From: Candidatus Nealsonbacteria bacterium
GTDB lineage: Bacteria; Patescibacteriota; Minisyncoccia; Minisyncoccales; JANBVM01
Reading direction: 5' to 3'
Length of the DNA stretch: 64,000 nucleotides
Assembly: GCA_026016225.1 (NCBI GenBank)
Contig: CP061210.1
Coordinates: 450,000-513,999, forward strand
The notes under the pieces were generated by a model. The model searched no databases. It saw only the letters and a program-made list of their open reading frames with translations, and was not told the DNA's origin. Shown here one piece after another: positions 2,944 through 63,601 of the stretch (position 1 is the stretch's first letter; each line of letters opens with the position of its first letter). A program made the translations under genes and the position numbers.

Positions 2944-4307
2944 AAAACTTAAATTTTAAAACAGAAACTGATGTTTTAAGTTTTCTTAAAAAGAATGAAA
3001 ATAATATTCGATTTGTTAGGATAATCTTCCCTGATGTTTTAGGAAGAGAAATGAGCTTTTGCATTCCCTCAGAAAAAATGAAATCTGCTTTTTTGCAAGG
3101 AGTAGGATTTGATGGAAGTTCAGTAGAAGGCTTTGCCAGGGTTGAAGAGTCAGATTTGATTATTGTACCTGCCCCTGAAACCTTCAGGGTTTTGCCCTGG
3201 GGTTATGAGTTTCAAGATGTGGGGTGGAAGGAGGCTGTTGTTTTTGGTGATATTTTTACATCAAAAGGAAATCGCTTTCAAGGAGATTCTAGGTATGTTT
3301 TAAAGAAAAGCTTAGAAAAAACAAAAAAATTTGGCAACCTTTACGTAGGTCCTGAACTTGAATTTTTTATTTTTGAAAATGAAAAACAACCAAAATTATT
3401 AGACCATGGAGGTTATTTTTATGGGGGGAAATTGGGAGAAATTAGAAAAATTGTTCAAATTTATCTTCAAGAAATGGGAATTAAAGCTGAGTGCGACCAT
3501 CATGAAGTAGCTCCAAGTCAGCACGAAATAAATTTAAGATATAGTGATGCTCTAAGTGTGGCTGACTCAATAGTTTTAGCCAAATATGTAATAAAAAGAG
3601 TGGCTCGAAATTTTGGCTTTTTCGCCTCTTTTATGCCAAAACCAATCGCCAGAATTAATGGTTCCGGGATGCATCTCCATTTATCTTTGTGGGAAAAAGA
3701 CAAAAATTTATTCTTTAAAGACAAAAAAGAACCCTTATCTAATTTAGCTAAAAAATATCTAACAGGATTAATCAAGTATGGCAGAGAAACTCAATTAGTT
3801 TTGAATCAATGGGTTAATTCTTACAAAAGATTAATTCCAGGTTATGAAGCTCCTGTATATTTGGCTTGGGGAAGAAAAAATAGGTCAGCCTATATTAGAG
3901 TTCCTGAGACTCACCTGGCAAAAGCAAACACTTCCACCAGAATTGAAGTTAGGTCTCCTGACCCTGCCTGTAATATCTATTTAGCTTTAGCTATTATCCA
4001 GGCAGCGGGGGTTCAAGGAGTTAAAGAAGATTTGAAGCTTTTACCTCCCCAAGAAAAGGACATTTTTGAAATGAAAGAAAGCGAGATGAAGAAAAGAAAG
4101 ATTAAAATTTTAGCTAAAAATTTAAACGAAGCTTTAAGGCATTTTAAGAATAGTAAATTAGTTAGAGAGACCCTTGGCGAGCATTTATTTAAGAAAATAA
4201 TCCAAAACAAGAAAATCGAATGGGAAAGATACAAAAAAGCAGCTGGTAAAAAATTTGAAAAGTCAGTTAGTCCGTATGAAATAAAAGAGTATTTACCGGT
4301 ACTTTAA
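2940..4307 (+). CDS. Glutamine synthetase family protein (ATP-dependent amide ligase)
   Basis: 455 aa. FDGSSVEGF, GPELEFF, HHEVAPSQHEIN and NGSGMHLHLSLW are classic glutamine synthetase motifs. ATGA overlap gives translational coupling with the upstream gene. Confidence 0.8.
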   Translation: MKNLNFKTETDVLSFLKKNENNIRFVRIIFPDVLGREMSFCIPSEKMKSAFLQGVGFDGSSVEGFARVEESDLIIVPAPETFRVLPWGYEFQDVGWKEAVVFGDIFTSKGNRFQGDSRYVLKKSLEKTKKFGNLYVGPELEFFIFENEKQPKLLDHGGYFYGGKLGEIRKIVQIYLQEMGIKAECDHHEVAPSQHEINLRYSDALSVADSIVLAKYVIKRVARNFGFFASFMPKPIARINGSGMHLHLSLWEKDKNLFFKDKKEPLSNLAKKYLTGLIKYGRETQLVLNQWVNSYKRLIPGYEAPVYLAWGRKNRSAYIRVPETHLAKANTSTRIEVRSPDPACNIYLALAIIQAAGVQGVKEDLKLLPPQEKDIFEMKESEMKKRKIKILAKNLNEALRHFKNSKLVRETLGEHLFKKIIQNKKIEWERYKKAAGKKFEKSVSPYEIKEYLPVL

Positions 4308-5884: not shown

Positions 5885-5893
5885 TTTGGAATT

Positions 5894-5934
5894 AAAAAAA
5901 GCGGCTTCAGACCTCTCAAAAAAGCCGCTTTTTT
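5894..5934. terminator. Bidirectional rho-independent terminator
   Basis: aaaaaagcggctt...aagccgctttttt: GC stem flanked by an A-run and a T-run, between convergent genes. Confidence 0.7.
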
Positions 5935-5950
5935 CTCAATTTTCTTTACT

Positions 5951-11611: not shown

Positions 11612-11697
11612 GTTTTTATTTTTTACTTAATTGTTTAATTGTTAACCTTTATATCATTCTATCACAACAAAAACCCAAGAAAAACTCTCGGGCAGCG

Positions 11698-12273
11698 CTA
11701 TTGTTCTTCAAACTTTACTTCTTCCGGGAATAACAATTGAAATGGATAACCTACATAATTCCTTTTTATCTTTCCACAACCAAGGTTTTTAAGAAAATCT
11801 ATCATTTCTTCTGTAATTTTTTTGGGATTTGGGTTTTTATCGGGACCAACATATTCAATTTCCACGAAATATCCAAGTCCTTTTACTGAATCTAAGGAAA
11901 TTTCGTAATCTTTGTATCTCCAAACTCTCCTTTTTTTATCCACTTTAACGATGGATTTAAAATTAAGAACATCTAATATCTTTTTTAATTGAGTTAAATC
12001 TTCTAGATTGGTCTGGTATTCATTACAATAATGGCTTTCCCCACTTTCATCAAAGTGCCAATTTTTATAGTTTATAGAGTGTTTACCATCTGAATTTCTT
12101 AATCTTAGCCACTCCTTTACAGGACGAACTTCAATAAAATTGCGATGAGTTGGAGAAAAGTACTCATCTATTTGATGTTTTTCTGATTTAAATTCAGCAT
12201 TTCTTTCTAAAAAATCTATTAAAGGCTTACTTTCTTCAATATTGACTTGAATTTCAATTTCAATATCTTTCAT
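11698..12273 (-). CDS. CYTH-domain protein (class IV adenylate cyclase / triphosphate tunnel metalloenzyme)
   Basis: N-terminal IEIEIQV (ExExK-like) strand and ~190 aa length. The leaderless-type promoter module sits directly upstream. Confidence 0.65.
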   Translation of the reverse strand: MKDIEIEIQVNIEESKPLIDFLERNAEFKSEKHQIDEYFSPTHRNFIEVRPVKEWLRLRNSDGKHSINYKNWHFDESGESHYCNEYQTNLEDLTQLKKILDVLNFKSIVKVDKKRRVWRYKDYEISLDSVKGLGYFVEIEYVGPDKNPNPKKITEEMIDFLKNLGCGKIKRNYVGYPFQLLFPEEVKFEEQ

Positions 12274-12288: not shown

Positions 12289-12354
12289 AAAAATCGCCTA
12301 AAAGGCGATTTTCTGAAGCTAACTCCCACTATTGGACGCGTTCAGAACCGTTGA
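12288..12354 (-). repeat. S-type intergenic repeat (tRNA-Gln 3'-end-like core plus terminator hairpin)
   Basis: Minus strand: AACGGTTCTGAACGCGTCCAATAGTGGGAG...AAATCGCCTTTTAGGCGATTTTTT. Confidence 0.6.
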
Positions 12355-12411
12355 TTGGGGAAAGATTAGAGAAAATCTTCAAGATTTGAAGACTCTTTTG
12401 GTTAAAGTTTA

Positions 12412-12446
12412 AATAAAAAAATGGTTTATCTGTTTAAACAAACCAT
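12412..12446 (-). terminator. Rho-independent terminator of 12459..12836
   Basis: Minus strand: ATGGTTTGTTTAAACAGATAAACCAT followed by TTTTTTT. Confidence 0.65.
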
Positions 12447-12458
12447 TTAAAATGTTTT

Positions 12459-14796: not shown

Positions 14797-15099
14797 TTAG
14801 TTCTTTAGTGCTTGTTTAAGTTCTCTAGCAGATTTTTCAAGTTTATTTATAACTTCTTCTCTCCAAACTTCCTCTTTTTCTTTTTTTTCCTTTGGCCACA
14901 CTATCTCTCCCAAAAGGACACAAAAAACATAGTAATTGATTTCGGGTTCATCCCACTTACCTTCGTTGTAATTCCACTCTTCTAGCAGAACTCCATTTTC
15001 TTCTGCTATTCTTTCAGCTATCCTCCTCTCCCACTTTTCAAGTACAATCGCTTTTCCCAATTTTATACCTGATTCACCATAATCATAATAATATGACAT
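14797..15099 (-). CDS. Hypothetical protein (100 aa)
   Basis: ORF with SD AAAGGAGTGA upstream. No motif. Confidence 0.5.
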   Translation of the reverse strand: MSYYYDYGESGIKLGKAIVLEKWERRIAERIAEENGVLLEEWNYNEGKWDEPEINYYVFCVLLGEIVWPKEKKEKEEVWREEVINKLEKSARELKQALKN

Positions 15100-36385: not shown

Positions 36386-36525
36386 CTTTTTCTTGGGTAT
36401 GAAACAAAAAACCATACCAACCAAAGAATCCAAAGAGCTTCTAAATAATCTCCATTTATAATTCCTATTATTCCTTTTATTCCAAAAAATCCCAGAAATC
36501 CAAATACCCATCTTTTACGCATCAT
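36319..36525 (-). CDS. Possible small membrane protein whose predicted C-terminus is encoded by the S-type repeat
   Basis: The N-terminal ~45 aa are hydrophobic. The tail ...SHKTGSNIVYCGEHF... is the translation of the repeat core. Confidence 0.3.
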   Translation of the reverse strand: MMRKRWVFGFLGFFGIKGIIGIINGDYLEALWILWLVWFFVSYPRKSHKTGSNIVYCGEHFGKLSASF

Positions 36526-36650
36526 AAACTAATTGTTTAGTTATCAATTAAAACCCTTACTATATTTTATCAAAAAACCACCTAACTGATTATGAAAAAA
36601 AAGCCCAAGAATGGGCTTGATTTCATTTATTTGATTTACTGAATTAATTC

Positions 36651-41759: not shown

Positions 41760-41869
41760 CTCTCGGTCGCAAAAACCAAGCACTAACCTGCTCCGGCGTT
41801 AGGATTCGAACCCCTCTCGGTCGCCCTAACGCCATAAGCGTCTCGGTCCTCGAACTGCGCTCAACGATG
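41760..41869 (-). repeat. T-type tRNA-like repeats directly abutting the 3' end of tRNA-Gln
   Basis: Minus strand after the tRNA: GCATCGTTGAGCGCAGTTCGAGGACCGAGACGCTTATGGCGTTAGGGCGACCGAGAGGGGTTCGAATCCTAACGCCGGAGCAGGTTAGTGCTTGGTTTTTGCGACCGAGAG. It contains a 9-bp stem, GGCGTTAGG/CCTAACGCC. Confidence 0.75.
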
Positions 41870-41940
41870 CTGCGGGGCTAGGATTCGAACCTAGATTGAG
41901 TTCTTCAAAGGAACCTGTGCTACCATTACACCACCCCGCA
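41870..41940 (-). tRNA. tRNA-Gln (anticodon UUG)
   Basis: Minus strand: TGCGGGGTGGTGTAATGGTAGCACAGGTTCCTTTGAAGAACTCAATCTAGGTTCGAATCCTAGCCCCGCAG. Manual cloverleaf has a 7-bp acceptor (U1-A72), anticodon loop CTTTGAA and T-loop TTCGAAT. No encoded CCA. Confidence 0.85.
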
Positions 41941-41951
41941 TTAATAAGTGA

Positions 41952-43076
41952 TTAAGCCAGTGATTCAGTAATTTCAACTATTGCCAGTTCTAAAGGTAGT
42001 TGTGGAATTGAGGAGTATTTCATTTTGTTTTGGGCCTGCAAAAATATATCTACAATTTTTCTCAAATCTTCTTGTTTAAATTTCTCTGTTTGTCTCTTAA
42101 GTGTTCTAATTTCTTCTTTTGTCAAACCTGATAAATATCCATACGAAGAAGCAGGATTTTCACCCTCCCCCATTATCTTAAGAATTAATGCTTTTCTTAG
42201 ATAACCAACCAGGGTTTTAGCAAACTCGTCTAAATCTAAACCCTTTCCACTAATTTCATTTAAATATTCTATTGTTTTAAAGGTTTTTTTATCCGAGAGA
42301 AAATCAGTGAATTTGCTGACTAACTCTATCTCTACCAAGCCTAATAAATCTTTAATGTCTTCAGCTTTTATCTCTTTTTCAGAATCTTTATAAAAAGTAG
42401 AAACCTGGTCTAATAAGCTTTCTGCATCTCTGATTGAACCTCCGGCATTTAGAGCTATTAATTCTAAGGCTGGTTTTTCGATTTTAATATTTTCCTTTTT
42501 AATGATAATTGTCAACTTTTTTATAATTTCTGACAAGGTGAACTTTCTAAAATCAAATCTCTGACATCTGGAGATGATTGTTGGAATCATTTTATGGATT
42601 TCTGTTGTAGCTAAAACGAAAATAGCATGGGCTGGCGGTTCCTCTAAAGTTTTCAAAAGGGCGTTAGCAGCATCTTTTGAAAGTTGATGAGCTTCATCCA
42701 GAATAAAGACTTTATATTTTGATTTTGTTGGAGAAAATCTAATTCCATTTTTCAGTTCTCTGATATCATCAATTCCCCTGTGGGAAGCAGCATCAATTTC
42801 AATTAAATCTATTGCTCTTCCTCCCATAATTTCAACACATGAAGAACACTTATCACAGGGTTCAAATTCCCCTTCTTTTCTATTTTGACAATTAACAGCT
42901 TTAGCTATTAGCCGGGCCATAGTTGTCTTCCCCGTTCCCTTAGGTCCTGAAAATAAATAAGCATGGGAAATCATTCCCTTTGAAATTGCATTGGTTAAGG
43001 TTTTGGCAATGTGTTCTTGACCAATAAATTCAGCGAAAGTTTGGGGACGATATTTTCGATATAGAACTAAAGACAT
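41952..43076 (-). CDS. dnaX: DNA polymerase III subunit gamma/tau (short form)
   Basis: GPKGTGKTTMARLIAKAVNC Walker A, zinc module CxxC, and SRCQRFDF sensor motif. Confidence 0.9.
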   Translation of the reverse strand: MSLVLYRKYRPQTFAEFIGQEHIAKTLTNAISKGMISHAYLFSGPKGTGKTTMARLIAKAVNCQNRKEGEFEPCDKCSSCVEIMGGRAIDLIEIDAASHRGIDDIRELKNGIRFSPTKSKYKVFILDEAHQLSKDAANALLKTLEEPPAHAIFVLATTEIHKMIPTIISRCQRFDFRKFTLSEIIKKLTIIIKKENIKIEKPALELIALNAGGSIRDAESLLDQVSTFYKDSEKEIKAEDIKDLLGLVEIELVSKFTDFLSDKKTFKTIEYLNEISGKGLDLDEFAKTLVGYLRKALILKIMGEGENPASSYGYLSGLTKEEIRTLKRQTEKFKQEDLRKIVDIFLQAQNKMKYSSIPQLPLELAIVEITESLA

Positions 43077-43777: not shown

Positions 43778-44662
43778 TTATTCGCTCTTTAATGCTTCTA
43801 AAATTTTTTTAAATTCTTTATATCGGGTTCTTAATGTTACTTCAGTTACGTTAGCGGCCTTAGCTAATTCCCGTTGTGTTATCTTTTCACCATATTGTTT
43901 GCAAGCGAGATATAGGGCAGCAGCTACTAATCCAGTAGGTTTTTTTCCCAGGGCGAGACCACCTTCTTCAGCCGTTTTTAAGAGCTGGCCAGCCAGAATT
44001 TGACTTCTTCCAGAAATAGCAAGCTTTTCAGAAATTCCTGGAATATATTTTAGTGGATCTAACGGTGCAATTTTTATATCAAGCACATTGAGTAAAAGTT
44101 TACAATAGCGATTAATAGTTTTTTTGCTGATAGAAGTTATCTCTGAAATTTCTTCAATAGTTTTTGGAATTTCCTTTACTCTATAGGCAATATAAATAAC
44201 AGCAGCAGCTAAATGTTCAAAACTTCTACCTTGAGTAGGAAGTTTTTTTAAAGCTTTATATAAAATCACTGCTGATTCTAATTTAACGGGCCATTCAACA
44301 TTGAGCTGGCTTAATAAAGAATGAAGTCTATCCATTGCTACATTAATTCTGTGTTTTTCTGGACCAAGGAGGCAACTGTGCCATTTTCTCATTCGATTTA
44401 TTACAGGTTGTGTATGTGAGGGAATTTTGTTTCCTCTAAAATCAAGATTTTTATGATCTATATAGCCTCCTGGGATTCCGTAATAAGTTATCGCTCCTAC
44501 AGGATATTTCGGCTCTCCATATTTTCGTTTTACACCTCCTGTCTGGTCTAATTCTTTATCCCTGATTATAAGTCCGCATTCACAACACCATTCACCTCTT
44601 GTCAGGTCGTAACTGAAATTACTATTTCCACATTCCGGGCATACTTCAACCTCTTCTTTCAT
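43778..44662 (-). CDS. Transcription factor IIB / archaeal TFB homologue
   Basis: N-terminal zinc ribbon CPECG...CCECG. Two cyclin-like repeats (GRSFEHLAAAVIYIAYR...TINRYCKLL and GKKPTGLVAAALYLACK...TLRTRYKEF). Confidence 0.8.
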   Translation of the reverse strand: MKEEVEVCPECGNSNFSYDLTRGEWCCECGLIIRDKELDQTGGVKRKYGEPKYPVGAITYYGIPGGYIDHKNLDFRGNKIPSHTQPVINRMRKWHSCLLGPEKHRINVAMDRLHSLLSQLNVEWPVKLESAVILYKALKKLPTQGRSFEHLAAAVIYIAYRVKEIPKTIEEISEITSISKKTINRYCKLLLNVLDIKIAPLDPLKYIPGISEKLAISGRSQILAGQLLKTAEEGGLALGKKPTGLVAAALYLACKQYGEKITQRELAKAANVTEVTLRTRYKEFKKILEALKSE

Positions 44663-49387: not shown

Positions 49388-49399
49388 TTTGGACATTAC

Positions 49400-49423
49400 A
49401 AAAACAGCCAAAAGGCTGTTTTA
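49400..49423. terminator. Bidirectional rho-independent terminator
   Basis: aaaaacagccaaaaggctgtttt, between convergent recR and rplU. Confidence 0.7.
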
Positions 49424-49445
49424 AAATCTCTATGTTTATTAATAC

Positions 49446-50801: not shown

Positions 50802-51758
50802 TTATTTAAGAAAAATTTCTGTGGCAACAAAAAAGATATAAATTCCAAGCAAAAATATAGCCTCTCTTTTGGTAATTCTACGGTCAGTTCTGGCAAAAAT
50901 GACAAAAAACAAACAAGTGGCTACCGTGAAGATAATCCCCCTCAGATAGGGTGAAAAATCAGAAACATCAAAAGGGGAAATTAAAGCTGTCAAACCTAAT
51001 ACTAAAGTAGAGTTAATTATTACAGAGCCCATTACATTTCCAAGAATCATTTCTTTGTGACCCATAGTAATTGACCTTATTCCAAAAGCTATCTCTGGAA
51101 GAGAAGTTCCTAAAGCTACAAAAATAGTACCGATAATTACCAGAGGTAAATTAAGAGAAGCAGCTAATTTCATTGCTGAGAAAACAACCCCTTCAGCACT
51201 TATTAAGAGTAGACCGGACCCTATCCAAAACATCGCCAGGTTCTTTAAGAATAATTTAAAGTAAGGCCAGTCTTCTTTAAAATGATTTGAAAAAATTTTA
51301 GTAAATCTTTCTTCTTCAGATAAAAGCTGATCGAAATAAAAACTCAAGGCTAAAAGCAAAACTATTCCATCTACTCTGGAAACTCTACCATCCAACATTA
51401 AAAGAAGAGGGAAAAGTCCATAAATCCCAGCATAGACACTTGATTTTTGTAGGATTTTTCCTTTAAACTTTAGTCCCCCTGCTAATATTACCCCAATAGT
51501 TATTACTAAGGTAAGAACAATAATGTTAGAACCAATAATGTTTCCAAATGAGAGTTCAGGTTTTTGATGAAGGGCTGAGGTAATTCCAATAAAAATCTCT
51601 GGAAATGAAGTTGAAAAGGCTATCAAAACAGAAGCTACTATAAATTCCTTCCATTTCAAAAATTGAGCTATTTTAGTTAGACTTTTTACTACCCAGACTC
51701 CTGAGCGGATTAAAACCAGACAAGAGATAATAAAAATTAGAATATAAAGCCAGACCAT
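50802..51758 (-). CDS. Ca2+/cation antiporter (CaCA family, YrbG-like)
   Basis: Two alpha-repeats, GNIIGSNI and GNVMGSVI. ~10 TM helices. Confidence 0.8.
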   Translation of the reverse strand: MVWLYILIFIISCLVLIRSGVWVVKSLTKIAQFLKWKEFIVASVLIAFSTSFPEIFIGITSALHQKPELSFGNIIGSNIIVLTLVITIGVILAGGLKFKGKILQKSSVYAGIYGLFPLLLMLDGRVSRVDGIVLLLALSFYFDQLLSEEERFTKIFSNHFKEDWPYFKLFLKNLAMFWIGSGLLLISAEGVVFSAMKLAASLNLPLVIIGTIFVALGTSLPEIAFGIRSITMGHKEMILGNVMGSVIINSTLVLGLTALISPFDVSDFSPYLRGIIFTVATCLFFVIFARTDRRITKREAIFLLGIYIFFVATEIFLK

Positions 51759-55994: not shown

Positions 55995-56136
55995 TTTTTT
56001 TCACCTCCTTTTTATTATTTTTATATATTATAAAAGATCTTAATAAGAGCAAAACTCTTACGCTTTTATAATACAAAATTTATTAGCTTTTGTCAAGTTA
56101 ATATATTAAAAAATTAGTCTTTCAGCTAATCTTCTG

Positions 56137-56209
56137 TGGCCCCAAGGGGAGTCGAACCCCTGTTACCGGGATGAGAACCCGACGTCCTAAACCATTAGAC
56201 GATGGGGCC
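56137..56209 (-). tRNA. tRNA-Glu (anticodon CUC)
   Basis: Minus strand: GGCCCCATCGTCTAATGGTTTAGGACGTCGGGTTCTCATCCCGGTAACAGGGGTTCGACTCCCCTTGGGGCCA. Manual cloverleaf has anticodon loop TTCTCAT. Confidence 0.85.
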
Positions 56210-58745: not shown

Positions 58746-58755
58746 ATTAATTTAA

Positions 58756-58806
58756 TTATCCACAGTTTTAGTCTCTTATTAACATATTTATCCACAATTC
58801 CCCACC
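58756..58806 (-). promoter_or_regulatory. Candidate MraZ operator: GTGGGG / GTGGAT / GTGGAT direct repeats upstream of mraZ
   Basis: Minus strand: GGTGGGGAATTGTGGATAAATATGTTAATAAGAGACTAAAACTGTGGATAA. The first two boxes are 10 nt apart and the third is 32 nt further. A fourth TGTGGAT lies at 58898..58906. Confidence 0.45.
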
Positions 58807-58913
58807 TACATTCACTTTATCTCACTTTATATATTATAGTCAACCTATAATAAAAATATACTCAAATTGAATATAAAAATACAACTTTATACACAGGAAA
58901 TCCACAGTATATC

Positions 58914-58986
58914 AAAAAACCCAAGAGAAAAACTCTCGGGATAGTGATTTATCCTGAGCTTTCGGAATTAGAACTTTAGACTGGAG
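58914..58986 (-). repeat. S-type intergenic repeat (divergent)
   Basis: Minus strand: AAAGTTCTAATTCCGAAAGCTCAGGATAAATCACTATCCCGAGAGTTTTTCTCTTGGGTTTTTT. Confidence 0.55.
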
Positions 58987-59001
58987 AAATGCTTAATTAT
59001 T

Positions 59002-59030
59002 AAAAGAGGCGCCAATATTTGGCGCCTCTT
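59002..59030. terminator. GC-rich hairpin terminator
   Basis: aagaggcgccaatatttggcgcctctt. Confidence 0.6.
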
Positions 59031-59043
59031 ACATATTCTTCTT

Positions 59044-59157
59044 TTACCACTCCTCTCCTTCCTCTTCTTCCTCTTTTTCTGATTCTTCCTTTTCTTCTTC
59101 CTTTTCCTCTTCTTCTGGGTCGTAATCTTCTTGTAGTTTGAATTTTCTCAGAAGCAT
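59044..59157 (-). CDS. Possible 37-aa highly acidic micro-protein
   Basis: Manual translation: MLLRKFKLQEDYDPEEEEKEEEKEESEKEEEEEGEEW*. The hairpin at 59002..59030 follows immediately. Below the ORF-track length cutoff. Confidence 0.25.
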   Translation of the reverse strand: MLLRKFKLQEDYDPEEEEKEEEKEESEKEEEEEGEEW

Positions 59158-59356
59158 TATTTTCAGGAACTTCTTAATGCTTTTAAGAAAATCTAAAGAT
59201 TTTCTGTTATTGCATTATTGAAGCTTATATTTTGCGAAAGTTCAACGGGAGACCAACCCCGTAAAAACCATTCTAAGAAAATTGTATGCTAACCAGAATC
59301 CTTGTCAATTGTGAATAACTTATAAGTATTTATCTAACTTCTCTTGTAGAAAAATA

Positions 59357-59665
59357 TTAAAACCTTCTTTTATCAAATCCTTTGCGATTACCAGAGAATT
59401 TTCTGAAAGGTTTCTCTTCCCTCGGCTTGGCTTCATTCACTATGATGTTCCTTCCGTCTAATTCTTTTCCATTAAACATTTCTATCGCTTTTTTTGCTTC
59501 TTTTTCTGAAGACATCTCCACGAATGCAAATCCCTTTGATCTGCCAGAGAATTTATCCATCACAATAGAAACAGAATCTACTGTTCCAGCCTTGGAAAAC
59601 AAATCTTTTAAAGTGTCTTCAGTTGTGTTAAAAGAAAGACTTCCTACGTAAACTTTATTTGTCAT
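59357..59665 (-). CDS. RRM-type RNA-binding protein
   Basis: VYVGSLSF (RNP2) and KGFAFVEM (RNP1). Gly/Arg-rich tail. Confidence 0.9.
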   Translation of the reverse strand: MTNKVYVGSLSFNTTEDTLKDLFSKAGTVDSVSIVMDKFSGRSKGFAFVEMSSEKEAKKAIEMFNGKELDGRNIIVNEAKPREEKPFRKFSGNRKGFDKRRF

Positions 59666-59782
59666 CTTTTTTTAGAAATTTATTAAACTTACCGACCTAC
59701 TTCTAAGCTCTCACAGATAAAAAATTTAACGTAAGATTTAGATAGTACGACATTTCTCTTTGTAAAAAGGAAAGTAATTTTA

Positions 59783-59810
59783 AGTATACATTTAACATTT
59801 ATTTTGTCAA
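59783..59810 (-). promoter_or_regulatory. Sigma70-type promoter of the RRM gene (TTGACA-16 nt-TATACT), giving a ~110-nt 5'UTR
   Basis: Minus strand: TTGACAaaataaatgttaaatgTATACT. Confidence 0.5.
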
Positions 59811-59825
59811 ATTAAATAATCAACT

Positions 59826-59860
59826 TCTCCGAGGAAGGGACTATGTTAGAATCTATTTGG
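59826..59860 (-). repeat. S-type core abutting the stop of 59862..60083
   Basis: Minus strand: CCAAATAGATTCTAACATAGTCCCTTCCTCGGAGAAG. Confidence 0.55.
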
Positions 59861-59861
59861 T

Positions 59862-60083
59862 TTAAAGTTCTTCTTTTTGAAATTTCTCTTCCTGGGTTTT
59901 ATCTAACTTTCTAATGAGTTTTATTAACTCAGCAACATGTTCTTTTTCGTCATCTCTAATATGACCTAAAACCTTTTTCACTTCTTCATTGTCAATTTCG
60001 TCTATATGTTCTTGATATTGATTGATAGCCCCTAATTCTCCTATTAAATCTTCTCTTAAATTTTTTAAATCTTTGTTATCCAT
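59862..60083 (-). CDS. Small ferritin-like four-helix protein (encapsulated-ferritin/rubrerythrin-like)
   Basis: ELGAINQYQEH...DDEKEHVAELIKLI (ExxH-type di-iron ligand pattern). 73 aa. Confidence 0.45.
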   Translation of the reverse strand: MDNKDLKNLREDLIGELGAINQYQEHIDEIDNEEVKKVLGHIRDDEKEHVAELIKLIRKLDKTQEEKFQKEEL

Positions 60084-60107
60084 AACCTTTAATATTATTT
60101 ACTTAAG

Positions 60108-60794
60108 TTAAGATTTAAAATCAGTTATATTCTTGAAACTGCATGTACACGGTGCGTTTTTACACACATGACAATTATTAGAGAACATTACAGAAAGCTC
60201 TTTTGCCATACTCATTCCTAATGAGTTGAAAGCACTCATTATACAAGAGAAAAAATCAGCAGCTTCTAATTCAAGAGTTTTAAAATCTTCATCTGTATGT
60301 TCTCCACGATAAGTTAATAATGCTTCTGAAAACTCACCTGCTTCCTCCGCCAAATGAATACCTGCATGCTCTATGGTTCGTCTTTCAGCTGGATATATCT
60401 TATTAAACATATCTTGAAATTCTTCAAGCGTTCTTGGTCGCTTACTTTCATCTACAGAGACATTTTGTCTTTTCTCTATCTTTTTTTCCTTACAGAAACA
60501 TGGACACGAACCACAATAAGAGCACAGATAGGGAAATCTCTTCCATATTTGACTTTCTATATCAATATGAAGCTGATTCATTATAGACATAAACCAGCTA
60601 AAAGCTATTAATAAATTAATTTTTGTCTTTTCTTTATTGTTTTTTCTAATACCTTTAAGTCCCCTCATCATAAAACGCTCCATATTACTAATCATATCCC
60701 ACAAACTAAAATATCTATCATTAGATAAGCCATATACCTTTTTTACGAAACTCTGATATTCTTTTATTGTTGTATTTTGTTTAACTGAAGCCAT
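60108..60794 (-). CDS. MazG-like NTP pyrophosphohydrolase domain protein with two Cys clusters
   Basis: HLAEEAGEFSEAL and LELEAADFFSCIMSAF helices. CSYCGSCPCFC and CHVCKNAPCTC clusters. Confidence 0.5.
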   Translation of the reverse strand: MASVKQNTTIKEYQSFVKKVYGLSNDRYFSLWDMISNMERFMMRGLKGIRKNNKEKTKINLLIAFSWFMSIMNQLHIDIESQIWKRFPYLCSYCGSCPCFCKEKKIEKRQNVSVDESKRPRTLEEFQDMFNKIYPAERRTIEHAGIHLAEEAGEFSEALLTYRGEHTDEDFKTLELEAADFFSCIMSAFNSLGMSMAKELSVMFSNNCHVCKNAPCTCSFKNITDFKS

Positions 60795-60802
60795 ATTATC
60801 CC

Positions 60803-60811
60803 ATTATACCA
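60803..60811 (-). promoter_or_regulatory. Extended -10 box TGGTATAAT, 8 nt from the ATG (leaderless-type)
   Basis: Minus strand: CTCGGTTTTTTGGTATAATgggataatATG. Confidence 0.5.
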
Positions 60812-60873
60812 AAAAACCGAGCTAAATGCTCGGGCTACAAAAATTCCGAGGGGCGGACGATGTTAGAACCTGT
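60811..60873 (-). repeat. S-type intergenic repeat starting immediately after a stop codon
   Basis: Minus strand: (TAA)ACAGGTTCTAACATCGTCCGCCCCTCGGAATTTTTGTAGCCCGAGCATTTAGCTCGGTTTTTT. Confidence 0.8.
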
Positions 60874-61716
60874 TTACTTGAATTTTGCAGCGTGTCCTAA
60901 CCCGAAATAAATAGTTACAGGAATCTTATATTCCTTTGATAACTGCCTAATCTTGCCTTGGGCTTTATTGTAGAACTCATAAAATTTCTTTTTATTAAAA
61001 AGCGTTTCTTGTATTTCGGATAAGAGTTTTGGATAATTTTTTTTGAGCACTTTTTCTACACCAGTCCAGTTTCCTCCAACAGTATTAAAACTTTCTGTAA
61101 AGATATACTTTACCCTCACCCTTTTAAACTCTTTAAATAGGGCTTCGGGGTTTGTGAAAACTGGCCAGTATGGACCCATCATCACCAAAACAGTTATTCC
61201 TTCCTTAGTTAGCTTTTTCACTGCTTTTAAGCGTTGTCTTATTGTTGAGGAATTTGGTTCGATGAGCTTTTTCCATTTCTCATCAAGCGTAGTAACTGTA
61301 AAGTTAACATCAACATCTTTCATTTTTTTCAACAAAGCAATATCGCGGAGCACCAAATCAGATTTTGTAAGAATACTTACTGGGTTCTTATAATCTATTA
61401 AAACTTGTAATATGCCCCTTGTAAGCTTATATTCCTTTTCAATCGGCTGATATGGGTCAGTAACGGTTCCTATAAAAATTCGTTCACCTTTATATTTAGG
61501 TGACTTTAATTGTTTTTTAAGGACATCAGCAATGTTTATGCGTGCATCTACAAAGGTTCCCCATTCTTCAGTATGGCCTGTAAATCTTTTGATAAAACGG
61601 GCATAGCAATATACGCAACTATGGCCACAACCAACATAAGGATTTATTGCTAATCCGCCTCCGGGAAAACCACACTTTCCAATCGCTGATTTGCATTGTA
61701 TTTCTCTGACTTTCAT
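60874..61716 (-). CDS. Radical SAM protein of the SplB / DNA-repair-photolyase-like family
   Basis: NPYVGCGHSCVYCYARF cluster motif. 280 aa. Confidence 0.7.
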   Translation of the reverse strand: MKVREIQCKSAIGKCGFPGGGLAINPYVGCGHSCVYCYARFIKRFTGHTEEWGTFVDARINIADVLKKQLKSPKYKGERIFIGTVTDPYQPIEKEYKLTRGILQVLIDYKNPVSILTKSDLVLRDIALLKKMKDVDVNFTVTTLDEKWKKLIEPNSSTIRQRLKAVKKLTKEGITVLVMMGPYWPVFTNPEALFKEFKRVRVKYIFTESFNTVGGNWTGVEKVLKKNYPKLLSEIQETLFNKKKFYEFYNKAQGKIRQLSKEYKIPVTIYFGLGHAAKFK

Positions 61717-61731
61717 TCTTTTATTTTACAT

Positions 61732-61826
61732 AAAAACCGCCTTCTTGGCGATTTTTTATGCCTCTCGGTCGCTCGAACCGAGCACTATTCTGCTCCGGGG
61801 AGCAGACGACGTTCGAACCTATTGGC
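61732..61826 (-). repeat. Composite S/T-type repeat
   Basis: Minus strand: CAATAGGTTCGAACGTCGTCTGCTCCCCGGAGCAGAATAGTGCTCGGTTCGAGCGACCGAGAGGCATAAAAAATCGCCAAGAAGGCGGTTTTT. Confidence 0.75.
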
Positions 61827-61904
61827 TTAATACCAAAGAATATTTTGAAATACCGGTTTTGGCTATTCCTTAATCTGCTCATTCGCTACTCGCTATTTCT
61901 TGAT

Positions 61905-61918
61905 GCCCAGCGATGGGC
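61905..61918. terminator. Hairpin GCCCAGCGATGGGC (copy 2 of 3 identical)
   Basis: gatGCCCAGCGATGGGCtttttgttgg. Confidence 0.5.
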
Positions 61919-61952
61919 TTTTTGTTGGCTTCATTAGTACAAAGTTAAGAAA

Positions 61953-63134
61953 CTATTTTGAGTAAACAGGTTGAAAGGCTTCTTCTGTGTAAACATTTGA
62001 TGAGCTCCACAGCATAAAACCCCTAAAATTGTCTTTGGTGGCATCGTAAACCGCTTTAATCTCAGACCTTACCATTTCAGCATCATAAATGGCTCCTAAA
62101 CTAAAATCCTGAAGCCAGGGACGTAATTGAACGTTTCTTTTTTTTATTTGGTTATAGGCTGATAATCTCCTTAAAGCACTCTCCATCGAATATTTTACCA
62201 CTTCATAAGGATAATCGGCTGGGTTTTGATAGCCTAAAAATCCCTCGGCGTAGTGAGAAGGATAAATCATTGGACATACATAATCAAAATATTCAAAAGC
62301 ATCTTCAATTATTTGACCTACCCCCAAATCATTATAACTAACGGTAGATAATCCAAAAAAGTCAATCGATAACTTAACATCAGGAAGCTCTTGTCGAAGC
62401 TGTTTAAAAAACTCCTTGATGATTAAATGTTTTGAAATACTTTCATTCCAAAAAGAAAAACTCATATCTTTTAAATCGCCGTCCGAAGGAAATCTAACAT
62501 AATCAAAATTTATTTCATCAAATCCTTGTTTTAGAGTATCTTTGGCAATAGCAATATTGTAATCCCAACTTTCTTTTGCGGCAGGATCAATCCAGGCTAA
62601 TCCCGATTTATCAAGCCAGAGAGAAGATAGAGAAAGAGGTGCAAAAGCTAATTTAGATTTACTATGAACTGCTAAATCCGGCCTAGCTTCAGCTAATCTT
62701 GGGTCTTGAAAGATAGTGATTCTGGCAATTACATAAATTCCTTCTTCATGAAGTCTTTGGATAAGAGAACCAATATCTTTAATTCTGATACTTTTTGCAT
62801 TATATTTCTCCACCTTTGGCACTTTTGTATCATAGTCCACATATCCAGACCAATCCTTAATGTCAATTACGACGCTGTTAATTTCTGTATTCTTTGCAAT
62901 ATCAATTACATGATTAATGTAATCTTCTTTGGTTGCTGACCAACTTGTTACATAGATGGCTTTTACTACTTCCGGTGGCTGAAAAGGTGGTTTTGGAGTT
63001 TCAGAAATAACACTGGTGTCCTGACCTAGTTTTACTGCTGATTTTTGAAAGAGAATAAAAAATATCCCGATTATTGTCAGGGTTACCACAATTAAAAGAA
63101 TTATTATGTAAGGCTTGGCTAATTTCATAATCAA
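61953..63134 (-). CDS. Membrane-anchored putative glycoside hydrolase (DUF4015-like TIM barrel)
   Basis: N-terminal TM helix. VKAIYVTSWSA...INSVVIDIKDWSGYV and DEINFDYVRFP motifs. Confidence 0.6.
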   Translation of the reverse strand: MIMKLAKPYIIILLIVVTLTIIGIFFILFQKSAVKLGQDTSVISETPKPPFQPPEVVKAIYVTSWSATKEDYINHVIDIAKNTEINSVVIDIKDWSGYVDYDTKVPKVEKYNAKSIRIKDIGSLIQRLHEEGIYVIARITIFQDPRLAEARPDLAVHSKSKLAFAPLSLSSLWLDKSGLAWIDPAAKESWDYNIAIAKDTLKQGFDEINFDYVRFPSDGDLKDMSFSFWNESISKHLIIKEFFKQLRQELPDVKLSIDFFGLSTVSYNDLGVGQIIEDAFEYFDYVCPMIYPSHYAEGFLGYQNPADYPYEVVKYSMESALRRLSAYNQIKKRNVQLRPWLQDFSLGAIYDAEMVRSEIKAVYDATKDNFRGFMLWSSSNVYTEEAFQPVYSK

Positions 63135-63213
63135 AAATAGCTACCTATAACTGGTCTCAACAGAAAAAAGTTAATTACTTTATTATACATTTTAAACAGA
63201 AAATAAAAAAATT

Positions 63214-63227
63214 GCCCAGCGATGGGC
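63214..63227. terminator. Hairpin GCCCAGCGATGGGC (copy 3 of 3 identical)
   Basis: aaaaaaattGCCCAGCGATGGGCttttttgtttg. Confidence 0.6.
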
Positions 63228-63249
63228 TTTTTTGTTTGTTTAAATAAAA

Positions 63250-63370
63250 TAAAACAGGGTTAAAAACCCTGTTTTCGCTGCTGAGGTCCGGCGGTAGGAC
63301 TCGAACCCGTCTCGGTCTCTCGAACCGAGCACTAGCCTGCTCCCCAATAGGACTCGAACCCCTACGGGTT
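63250..63370 (-). repeat. T-type repeat with two tandem T-loop-like units
   Basis: Minus strand: GTAGGGGTTCGAGTCCTATTGGGGAGCAGGCTAGTGCTCGGTTCGAGAGACCGAGACGGGTTCGAGTCCTACCGCCGGACCTCAGCAGCGAAAACAGGGTTTTTAACCCTGTTTT. Confidence 0.75.
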
Positions 63371-63601
63371 GATTCTTAGTTAAAAATCAAAGTTGACACC
63401 ATTTTTTGCAATTAATTCTTCGACTTTTTGTTTTCAATAGAATTTTAAAAAAATCAGAAATGTTTTTAATCAACCTCGGGTGTTGAGTAATTTTTGGAGA
63501 GTTTTCTTATTTATTTTTTCTAAAGAGGGGCTGAAAAACCGCTGCCGGAATTTTAGTTTTCTAATTTTATTTTACCTAATTGGCCTTTAGATAGATTGTT
63601 T

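Follow-up and report, generated by a model that had tools for sequence, protein, structure and literature searches.

The window analyzed here is a stretch of 64,000 nucleotides (nt) of Candidatus Nealsonbacteria (assembly GCA_026016225.1, contig CP061210.1, positions 450,000–513,999 of the forward strand). It is AT-rich (G+C of ~33%) and, from ~9 kb onward, almost all of its genes are carried by the minus strand. In two parts of the window, an intergenic repeat recurs either in an S form (a block of 33 nt) or in a T form (a literal tRNA-Asn 3′ end), and the second of these arrays, at 58.9–63.4 kb, is our main subject. The repeats are derived from the 3′ end of a tRNA and are anchored at tRNA-Asn and tRNA-Gln genes, they bound gene-sized units that differ between close genomes, and the block is conserved in sequence, without structure, across metagenome-assembled genomes (MAGs) of many Patescibacteria lineages. 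The material for comparison consists of 120 loci from many Patescibacteria MAGs, fetched with an exact 19-mer of the block (loci are designated by L and a number), and, for the second array, of five related contigs that encode the identical RRM protein. The complete genome CP179892.1 is 99.5% identical to the window and is a sister of Candidatus Nealsonbacteria CK12Hparc1 (CP179887.1).

Read along the minus strand, the second array leads from a DUF4234 gene to the T copies, the DUF4015 gene, an S block, the radical SAM gene, an S block, the genes for a 228-amino-acid (aa) protein and an EncFtn-like protein, an S block, the RRM gene, a small acidic open reading frame (ORF), a degenerate core and, finally, mraZ. 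Its features are:

63339–63365 (−): T-type copy a, a pseudo-tRNA 3′ end (GTAGGGGTTCGAGTCCTATTGGGGAGC), at the head of the second array
63309–63338 (−): link module, AGGCTAGTG and a T-arm-like hairpin (CTCGG-TTCGAGAGA-CCGAG), joining T copies a and b
63285–63308 (−): T-type copy b, a literal tRNA-Asn 3′ end (GGGTTCGAGTCCTACCGCCGGACC) without the 5′ strand of the T-stem
63251–63275 and 63205–63227 (the latter GCCCATCGCTGGGC) (−): two hairpins with T-runs (terminator scan; repeat family D18)
61953–63134 (−): cassette gene for a DUF4015 glycosyl-hydrolase-like protein (Pfam, E = 3e-94)
61792–61824 (−): S block CAATAGGTTCGAACGTCGTCTGCTCCCCGGAGC (nhmmer, E = 7e-5; family D1)
61762–61791, 61732–61757 and 61723–61731 (−): link hairpin, hairpin with T-run and −10-like ATGTAAAAT, ahead of the radical SAM gene
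60874–61716 (−): cassette gene for a radical SAM protein (Pfam, E = 2e-16)
60844–60875 (−): S block AAACAGGTTCTAACATCGTCCGCCCCTCGGAA, an exact core match
60803–60835 (−): hairpin GCCCGAGC-ATTT-GCTCGG with T-run, then an extended −10 box TGGTATAAT (families D2, D5, D7)
59862–60794 (−): two-gene cassette for a 228-aa Cys-rich protein and a 73-aa EncFtn-like protein
59827–59858 (−): S block AAATAGATTCTAACATAGTCCCTTCCTCGGAG (nhmmer, E = 3e-5)
59357–59810 (−): RRM cassette, with the promoter TTGACA-N16-TATACT (59783–59810), a conserved leader of ~120 nt and the RRM gene (59357–59665)
58953–58979, 58914–58940 and 58906–58914 (−): distal relic unit with a degenerate S core (CTAAAGTTCTAATTCCGAAAGCTCAGG), a hairpin with T-run and −10-like TGATATACT, ahead of mraZ and adjoining the dcw genes

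An initial annotation had described five copies recurring between 58.9 and 63.4 kb, and all of them do read on the minus strand. Four are solid (S at 59827, 60844 and 61792, and the double T-type copy at 63285–63365). The fifth, noted at 58914, is degenerate: the copy near 58953 is a relic, missed by the nhmmer profile search. The starts given at 58914, 60811 and 61732 correspond to the hairpin that belongs to each unit, and the unit positions are correct. At 60873/60874, where a stop codon without spacer had been reported, the TAA of the radical SAM gene (60874–60876) indeed shares two A's with the S block.

As to the genes, the labels first given agree with Pfam for the RRM protein (PF00076, E = 1e-23), the ferritin-like EncFtn protein (E = 1e-11), the radical SAM protein and the glycosidase-like protein; the label "MazG-like" could not be confirmed, the 228-aa Cys-rich protein having no Pfam match. 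The 228-aa and 73-aa genes are spaced by 24 nt, with no repeat in between, and it is the 228-aa gene that is served by the extended −10 box TGGTATAAT.

In T-type copy a, a canonical T-loop (GGTTCGAGTCC) is followed by an acceptor-like strand and AGC; neither ARAGORN nor Rfam calls a tRNA there. T-type copy b differs from the tRNA-Asn(GTT) gene of L063 (AGGTTCGAGTCCTACCGCCGGAGC) only at the first and the last of the compared bases. The link module between the two occurs also directly 3′ of genuine tRNA-Asn and tRNA-Gln genes (L039, L028, L062, L014 and window position 41869) and directly 3′ of S blocks (L038, L058, L096, L046). The link module (GTTCGAGAGACCGAGACGG, at 63309–63338, 61762–61791 and 41840–41860) resembles the R/P7 core of group I introns (GUUCAGAGACUACA…GACGG); RF00028 has no match in the window. 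The group I introns reported in tRNA-Asn genes of Patescibacteria (10.1101/2025.07.03.662931) are a different feature. Past the two hairpins of 63205–63275 comes the promoter region of the DUF4015 gene. The hairpin GCCCATCGCTGGGC, with the features of a bidirectional terminator, is found four times in the arrays (window 36603, 38837, 61905 and 63214).

Three TGTGGAT(A/T) boxes occur at 58750–58905 (−), between the last repeat unit and mraZ, reading as DnaA-box-like TTATCCACA on the opposite strand. TGTGGA(A/T) boxes are likewise present after S blocks in L039, L103 and L104. The boxes of the window could be sites for MraZ or DnaA.

Confinement of the repeat to two arrays

The density of the repeat was scanned over the window and ~0.9 Mb of loci picked for carrying it. 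The 15-mer GGTTCTAACATCGTC, with up to three mismatches, has 13 matches in the window, against 0.75 expected from shuffled sequences. Twelve of them are intergenic copies on the minus strand, and the thirteenth (at 51519, with three mismatches) falls in a coding region. An iterated nhmmer profile, built from ~300 copies, retrieves 11 window copies, all within 13.7–36.4 kb or 59.8–61.8 kb, and the T, U and link modules, located by motif scan, are found only in 12.9–41.9 kb and 58.9–63.4 kb. In the two arrays, 24 of the 33 intergenic gaps hold an element, against none of 12 elsewhere (Fisher p = 1e-5).

Between dnaX and mraZ, where the genes are core and largely organized in operons, the absence of copies reported in the initial annotation holds for both profile and motif searches over 42–58.7 kb. 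On the left side, no copies are present in 1–11.6 kb, as had been stated, but the boundary then placed at 12273 is probably too far right: a hairpin and promoter of the unit type, without the core, lie at 11662–11693, so that the first array probably ends at ~11.6 kb rather than 12.27 kb. The proposal that the elements are restricted to particular compartments, instead of being the generic terminator of the organism, gains support from these counts, from the unpaired core and from the other hairpins that core genes use. Plain hairpin terminators without the core serve other genes of the window, for example at 5885–5950 and 49388–49445.

Within the dnaX-to-mraZ block, a 294-aa ORF (43778–44662, minus strand) contains two TFIIB cyclin repeats (PF00382, E = 1e-32) and a TFIIB-type zinc ribbon, in a genome otherwise clearly bacterial (dcw genes, DnaB, RecR, L21p).

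The S block and the 3′ end of tRNA

The S block can be written A-AACAGGTTCTAACATCGTCC-N7-GGAGC, with GCAGC or CCAGC as alternative endings and with the seven nucleotides mostly variable. In a logo of 271 non-identical copies, conservation stops abruptly at −1 and +31, with none beyond, and the right edge (+31) corresponds to where a tRNA has its 3′ end. Half of the copies in the logo were chosen by the exact 19-mer, which inflates the conservation inside the 19-mer, but the pattern holds also for the 147 copies that are not exact. According to RNAalifold, 40 diverse copies form no base pairs; the block is not palindromic, and we did not find an inverted partner of the core within the units. 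Insertions the size of a hairpin are tolerated after TAAC, ATC and GTCC. The 20-mer AACAGGTTCTAACATCGTCC, which is not of tRNA type, is >90% conserved at almost every position in MAGs of many lineages, while the genes around it diverge to 70–85% amino-acid identity or lose homology.

Upstream ORFs terminate 0 to 90 nt ahead of the block, the distances peaking where the block directly adjoins the stop codon, and many upstream genes end in a unique hairpin with T-run of their own ahead of the S block. On the 3′ side, there is either a short linker or AGGCTAGTG with the CTCGG-TTCGAGAGA-CCGAG hairpin, and then a hairpin with a T-run that often merges into the extended −10 box (TGGTAGAAT or TGATATAAT) of the next gene. 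This hairpin with T-run accompanies most copies and is separate from the conserved 33 nt. Both neighboring genes have the orientation of the copy in 160 cases and are opposed to it in eight; a single locus out of 121 contains copies in both orientations.

In its right half (CC-N3-N7-G-C), the S block is laid out like the 3′ strand of the T-stem, the 3′ acceptor strand, the discriminator G73 and C74 of a tRNA. Out of 282 copies, this half matches best with tRNA-Asn in 159 and with tRNA-Gln in 60. The 20-mer AACAGGTTCTAACATCGTCC takes the place of the T-arm half in S-type copies, which retain the 3′ T-stem and acceptor strand, the discriminator G and a C.

ARAGORN identifies 47 tRNAs in the 120 loci, and 20 of these are tRNA-Asn(GTT) or tRNA-Gln (binomial p = 5e-12). 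All the loci with tRNA-Asn or tRNA-Gln have S blocks downstream, in the same orientation as the tRNA. The island lies directly 3′ of the full-length tRNA in the first array of the window (with tRNA-Gln) and in all 19 other tRNA-Asn or tRNA-Gln loci. In the window this anchor is:

41790–41940 (−): anchor of the first array, with tRNA-Gln(TTG) at 41869–41940, then the link module, then a T-type copy at 41790–41814

The first array starts exactly at this tRNA-Gln, which explains the boundary of the copy-free block previously set at 41952. Core genes precede the anchor tRNAs: dnaG-rpoD in eight loci, ftsE-ftsX in three, and dnaX in the window and in L014.

The sequences that follow the tRNA and the S block are alike in several loci. 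In L108, the terminator after the tRNA is identical to that after the S block. In L115, a 25-nt direct repeat (TCGCGGAGCAAATTAGCCTCAAAAG) spans the end of the tRNA and its flank and recurs at the S block, and in L037 more than 60 nt, promoter included, are common to the two flanks; the flanks of L119 are similarly alike. A gene that comes after tRNA-Gln in L062 is found in L086 behind an S block whose tail is Gln-like. These equal flanks lead us to regard the S or T unit as a copy of "tRNA 3′ end plus tRNA terminator", so that, with a matching flank of tRNA type after each copy, every unit looks like a tRNA 3′ end, a tRNA terminator and the promoter of the next gene. A complete tRNA is found at none of the S, T or U copies (ARAGORN; Rfam RF00005 to E = 5), and the only tRNAs called in the window are tRNA-Gln (41869–41940) and tRNA-Glu (56136–56209).

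Other assignments of the block were considered and rejected. As a structured RNA, it would be expected in Rfam, where searches at the gathering score and with E up to 5 return only the two window tRNAs, and RNAalifold gives no pairs. As a coding sequence or C-terminal tag, it lacks codon periodicity; the stops are located at −90 to −2, and the block's own TAA is the stop in only seven cases. A partial likeness to integron attC (TTCTAAC to RYYYAAC) is without an inverted partner. A DNA uptake sequence does not agree with copies that are confined to arrays and present in both orientations at one locus only. Complementarity to rRNA, a weak resemblance to the 790 loop seen by eye among conserved 16S segments, was dropped as unsupported.

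Some particular forms of the block were observed. A subtype GGTTCTGAAC or GGTTCTAAAATCGTCC…CGAGC occurs at window 12300–12458, L046 (~688 and ~7448), L120 (~1050 and ~4660), L048 (~7491) and L026 (~3366). The conserved stretch on its 5′ side reads, on the opposite strand, as a short ORF (…DDFRT-L(D/R)W..(V/I)F…) with variation like that of third positions. A small membrane ORF at window ~36400–36600 (−) and its orthologue in CP179887 (L058, ~2300–2700) remain open up to the S block and continue across it in frame (…KTGSN(I/L)V…), so that the block supplies their C-termini. In L034, L036, L085, L090, L093 and L099, the S block follows a LuxR-type C-terminus (…KLGI.NRVVA…), and a stretch of 7–9 nt just 5′ of it is complementary to the acceptor-like tail, which could close a stem around the 20-mer.

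Gene content of the arrays in related genomes

The gene content of the arrays differs between genomes that are otherwise 96–99.5% identical. In the second array, the unit with the radical SAM and 228-aa genes is present in the window and in CP179892 and missing from CP179891, where a 61-aa gene between two link hairpins takes its place. The breakpoint between CP179892 and CP179891 lies in the 61723–61791 module, directly after …GACCGAG. CP179891 has, in addition, a 204-aa gene after DUF4234 and preceding the DUF4015 gene, and an inverted extra S unit flanking DUF4015; its EncFtn gene has a link hairpin, a hairpin and a TGATAGAAT promoter of its own. The radical SAM gene is missing also from ENA scaffold_184, in which the 228-aa gene is preceded by entirely different genes, with a different S block before the same promoter. 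The stretch from RRM to mraZ is unchanged across all five related contigs, a constancy that fits an array whose distal end abuts the core. The RRM cassette itself (promoter, leader and gene) is beside mraZ in the window and between PsbP-like and NUDIX genes in CP179887 (L058); homology between the two begins right after …GGAG, and the genes upstream differ.

In the first array, CP179891 is without the segment 26594–35287 of the window (8.7 kb, about ten genes). A 100-aa cassette (window 14797–15099) has a different position in CP179891, next to CspA, and the sequence that follows tRNA-Gln in the window sits in the middle of the array in CP179891, behind a U-type copy. Ahead of the CspA cassette, there is a T copy in CP179891, a U copy in the window (37018) and an S copy in CP179887, with the junction right after AGC in all three genomes. 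Most junctions are located right after AGC, and the ends of BLAST homology between loci are enriched at the S block.

The exact 19-mer is present in at least 120 stretches, from MAGs labeled Saccharibacteria, Nealsonbacteria, Paceibacterota, Colwellbacteria, Moranbacteria, Peribacteria, Minisyncoccia and others, often with several copies per 8 kb. It occurs also in a few MAGs labeled as other phyla, including L016 and L100 (a Zixibacteria-labeled 2.7-Mb chromosome, OY970208.1). Among the 2.9 M contigs of IMG/VR, it is found once, at the very end of a contig (L126, 14690–14819; UViG_3300009529_003397). That contig is phage-like (terminase, portal, capsid; ~52% G+C), its last 110 nt are AT-rich and Patescibacteria-like, and the switch in composition is exactly at the S block, after …GGAGC; the junction is either one of integration or an assembly chimera. 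In the collections of cultured phages and plasmids, the 19-mer is not found, with only chance 17- to 18-mers. With this single IMG/VR match and none in those collections, an origin from phages or plasmids was rejected.

One related array (L128) contains, at 3263–3973, an IS200/RAYT-like Y1_Tnp gene with inverted copies of GGTGTCAACTCTGAATTT on both sides, and also an ORF with Zn_ribbon_TFIIB. A motif nearly identical to GGTGTCAACTCTGAATTT, GGTGTCAACTTTGATTTTT, is present in the window at 63382–63400, just upstream of the T copies, and again at ~32.65 kb. Y1_Tnp occurs in two of 137 loci (L128 and L131), and the repeats that flank it differ in sequence from the S block.

Interpretation and alternatives

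We regard the S and T copies as probably, though by no means assuredly, the junction repeats of tRNA-seeded, integron-like arrays or islands of mostly single-gene cassettes. Recombination would join a new gene to the 3′ end of the tRNA gene or of a copy already present, with the junction right after …AGC. The incoming DNA would bring its own copy, so that the array would gain a gene unit together with a further co-oriented repeat at each event; recombination among copies would also delete, invert and reshuffle units. In this way, a flexible island would build up from insulated transcription units, most of them with a single gene, while the core next to it stays untouched. Both the direction and the sequence in which insertions took place are inferred. 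The 20-mer may be read as DNA by a recombinase encoded elsewhere, in the manner of an integron or att site, rather than take part in exchange by homology only. The strongest argument for such a specific recognition is that the non-tRNA half of the block is conserved while the surrounding genes diverge. Tentatively, one could go further and see here a so far undescribed form of integron-like gene capture in Patescibacteria, in which the 3′ end of tRNA-Asn or tRNA-Gln might be the primary site, the S block the cassette site, and a recombinase encoded elsewhere in the genome the enzyme that moves promoter-gene-terminator cassettes within and between lineages.

Several known systems share some of these features. 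Integrons consist of attI, attC sites and IntI, and have long co-oriented runs of single genes; their recombinase need not be encoded on the cassettes. The arrays resemble them in having co-oriented, mostly single-gene units, each with a short site-like repeat, one anchor at the head, and content and order that vary between strains. The attC sites are imperfect palindromes that are recognized in a folded, single-stranded state; they have R boxes (GTTRRRY) and are poorly conserved in sequence, whereas the S block is non-palindromic and conserved in sequence. Further, and unlike in integrons, the anchor is the 3′ end of a tRNA gene and the cassettes bring their own promoter and terminator. No intI-like gene is found beside the anchors, the neighbors being dnaX, rpoD-dnaG or ftsEX.

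Integrase att sites in tRNA genes, as reportedly described by Williams in 2002, include a class with crossover at the extreme 3′ end; here also the repeat spans the T-arm to the 3′ end and the junction with new DNA is at the tRNA 3′ end, but no cognate integrase is identified, there are dozens of sites per array, and tRNA sequence is lacking from the left half of the S block. Repetitive extragenic palindromes (REPs), which go with RAYT (Y1) transposases, are palindromic hairpins and miniature inverted-repeat transposable elements (MITEs) have terminal inverted repeats, neither of them tied to tRNA 3′ ends. With REPs, REPINs and MITEs, the copies share abundance, shortness, an intergenic position downstream of genes and frequent homogenization within a genome; they differ in being tied to tRNA 3′ ends and to gene-sized differences of presence and absence.

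Nearest of all are the flexible islands, seeded at tRNA genes, that tycheposons build in Prochlorococcus (Hackl et al., 10.1101/2020.12.28.424599). Such islands start at a full-length tRNA gene, as does the first array of the window. They also contain co-oriented partial-tRNA repeats, insertions at the tRNA push older material distally, and strain variation is confined to them while the streamlined genome is otherwise unchanged. Both arrays of the window contain co-oriented partial-tRNA repeats and have strain-variable content between constant flanks. Tycheposons (10.1101/2020.12.28.424599) are, however, multi-kb elements with their own tyrosine or serine recombinase and replication genes, rare (1–2 per genome) and with plain tRNA repeats. 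In the arrays, by contrast, a repeat follows almost every gene, no recombinase is found in or beside them, most repeats carry the conserved non-tRNA 20-mer, and each unit repeats the tRNA terminator and a promoter.

Several observations weigh against arrays of cassettes moved at the block. The 64-kb window contains no recombinase (Pfam on 69 ORFs; PHROGs on ORFs without a family) and, with core genes upstream of the anchors, a local enzyme was rejected. Searches by phmmer with XerD and Hin return four Xer-like ORFs in 884 kb of repeat loci, scattered, none consistently beside an array and none of the four beside an anchor tRNA. The second array is headed by two pseudo-tRNA 3′ ends and no intact tRNA, and the variable 7 nt often do not match the acceptor strand that the resident tRNA has (L039, L095 and L110 are examples). 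Some breakpoints fall elsewhere, one after GACCGAG of the link hairpin and one or two after the T-run of a hairpin; one junction in CP179891 is without any S block; and neither excised nor circular cassettes were seen. As the loci had been selected for carrying the repeat, what they tell of its genome-wide distribution is limited. A switch of flanks at a shared 33-nt repeat is also expected from homologous recombination and, because the block itself is shared, site-specific and homologous exchange are indistinguishable in these data. This, together with the missing recombinase, is the weakest point of the cassette interpretation.

The main rival is a signal acting at the RNA level, in which the block would be an element of 3′ untranslated regions, bound single-stranded by a protein or RNase (for setting of 3′ ends, mRNA stability or tRNA mimicry), and the rearrangements a by-product of many similar sequences. 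The co-orientation of the copies with their neighbors (160 versus 8), their position 0–90 nt after stops with the peak at the stop, and a strict conservation without structure, as for a single-strand RNA-binding site, are all in line with it; the copy at 60844 lies between a stop and the only terminator hairpin of the gene, and hence must be transcribed, and the second array encodes an RRM protein. We think it unlikely all the same. Many copies are behind the upstream gene's own hairpin and T-run, so that they would rarely be co-transcribed, and no gene end of the core block has a copy. Neither an edge at the position of the tRNA 3′ end nor T copies tied to tRNA-Asn and tRNA-Gln are needed by such a signal, and no Rfam family matches even at E = 5. 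It is further conceivable that the repeats are passive scars, left where integrase-bearing elements (phages, islands) repeatedly hit tRNA-Asn and tRNA-Gln and decayed, the present reshuffling being ordinary homologous recombination or transformation. Tandem insertions at a tRNA do leave co-oriented partial tRNAs, the newer pushing the older distally, in the tycheposon model (10.1101/2020.12.28.424599); the T-type copies are plain tRNA-Asn fragments, and the breakpoints are not all at one nucleotide. Scars should decay, however, and the 20-mer is conserved while neighboring genes diverge; the repeat is at nearly every gene and not every 5–50 kb, and integrase remnants were not found in the arrays (phmmer with XerD and Hin; PHROGs). 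This origin is decidedly improbable.

That the S unit (core and hairpin) is a small non-autonomous mobile element of the MITE or REP/REPIN kind, spread for instance by an IS200-like Y1 enzyme while the genes stay in place, appears very improbable. Near-identical units, linker and hairpin included, within one genome (L027, L031, L039) do suggest recent copying or concerted evolution, and the L128 array harbors a Y1_Tnp gene whose flanking motif recurs at window 63382–63400. In orthologous regions, however, whole genes come and go with the repeats, and not bare repeats; there are no terminal inverted repeats; Y1_Tnp is restricted to the two loci given above, with flanking repeats of another sequence; and the right part of the unit equals the downstream flank of the tRNA itself. 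As for a generic terminator of the organism, or a chance similarity, the likelihood is close to nil. A hairpin with T-run does accompany most copies, but the conserved block is separate from it and unpaired, and core genes use other hairpins without the block, so that the S block is not a terminator. Chance is at odds with the 13 matches where 0.75 are expected and with the recurrence of the exact 19-mer in other genomes.

In the literature, we did not find a description of this repeat, either for its sequence or under repeats, islands or cassettes of Patescibacteria, in a library that is incomplete. The repeat is probably the mark of a widespread process by which genes are added and exchanged. 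The genomes of Patescibacteria are very small, with few recognizable mobile elements and mostly no CRISPR, yet their gene content varies much from strain to strain. The 33-nt profile could serve to map flexible islands in any MAG and to set the boundaries of cassettes to the nucleotide; cassette pools become comparable between lineages, and a search for the enzyme that reads the 20-mer becomes possible. Pseudo-tRNA ends and small read-through ORFs can mislead the calling of genes and tRNAs. If a dedicated recombinase exists, the arrays would represent a second, independent invention of an integron-like system, and they might provide genetic tools with a landing site in bacteria that are very difficult to manipulate.

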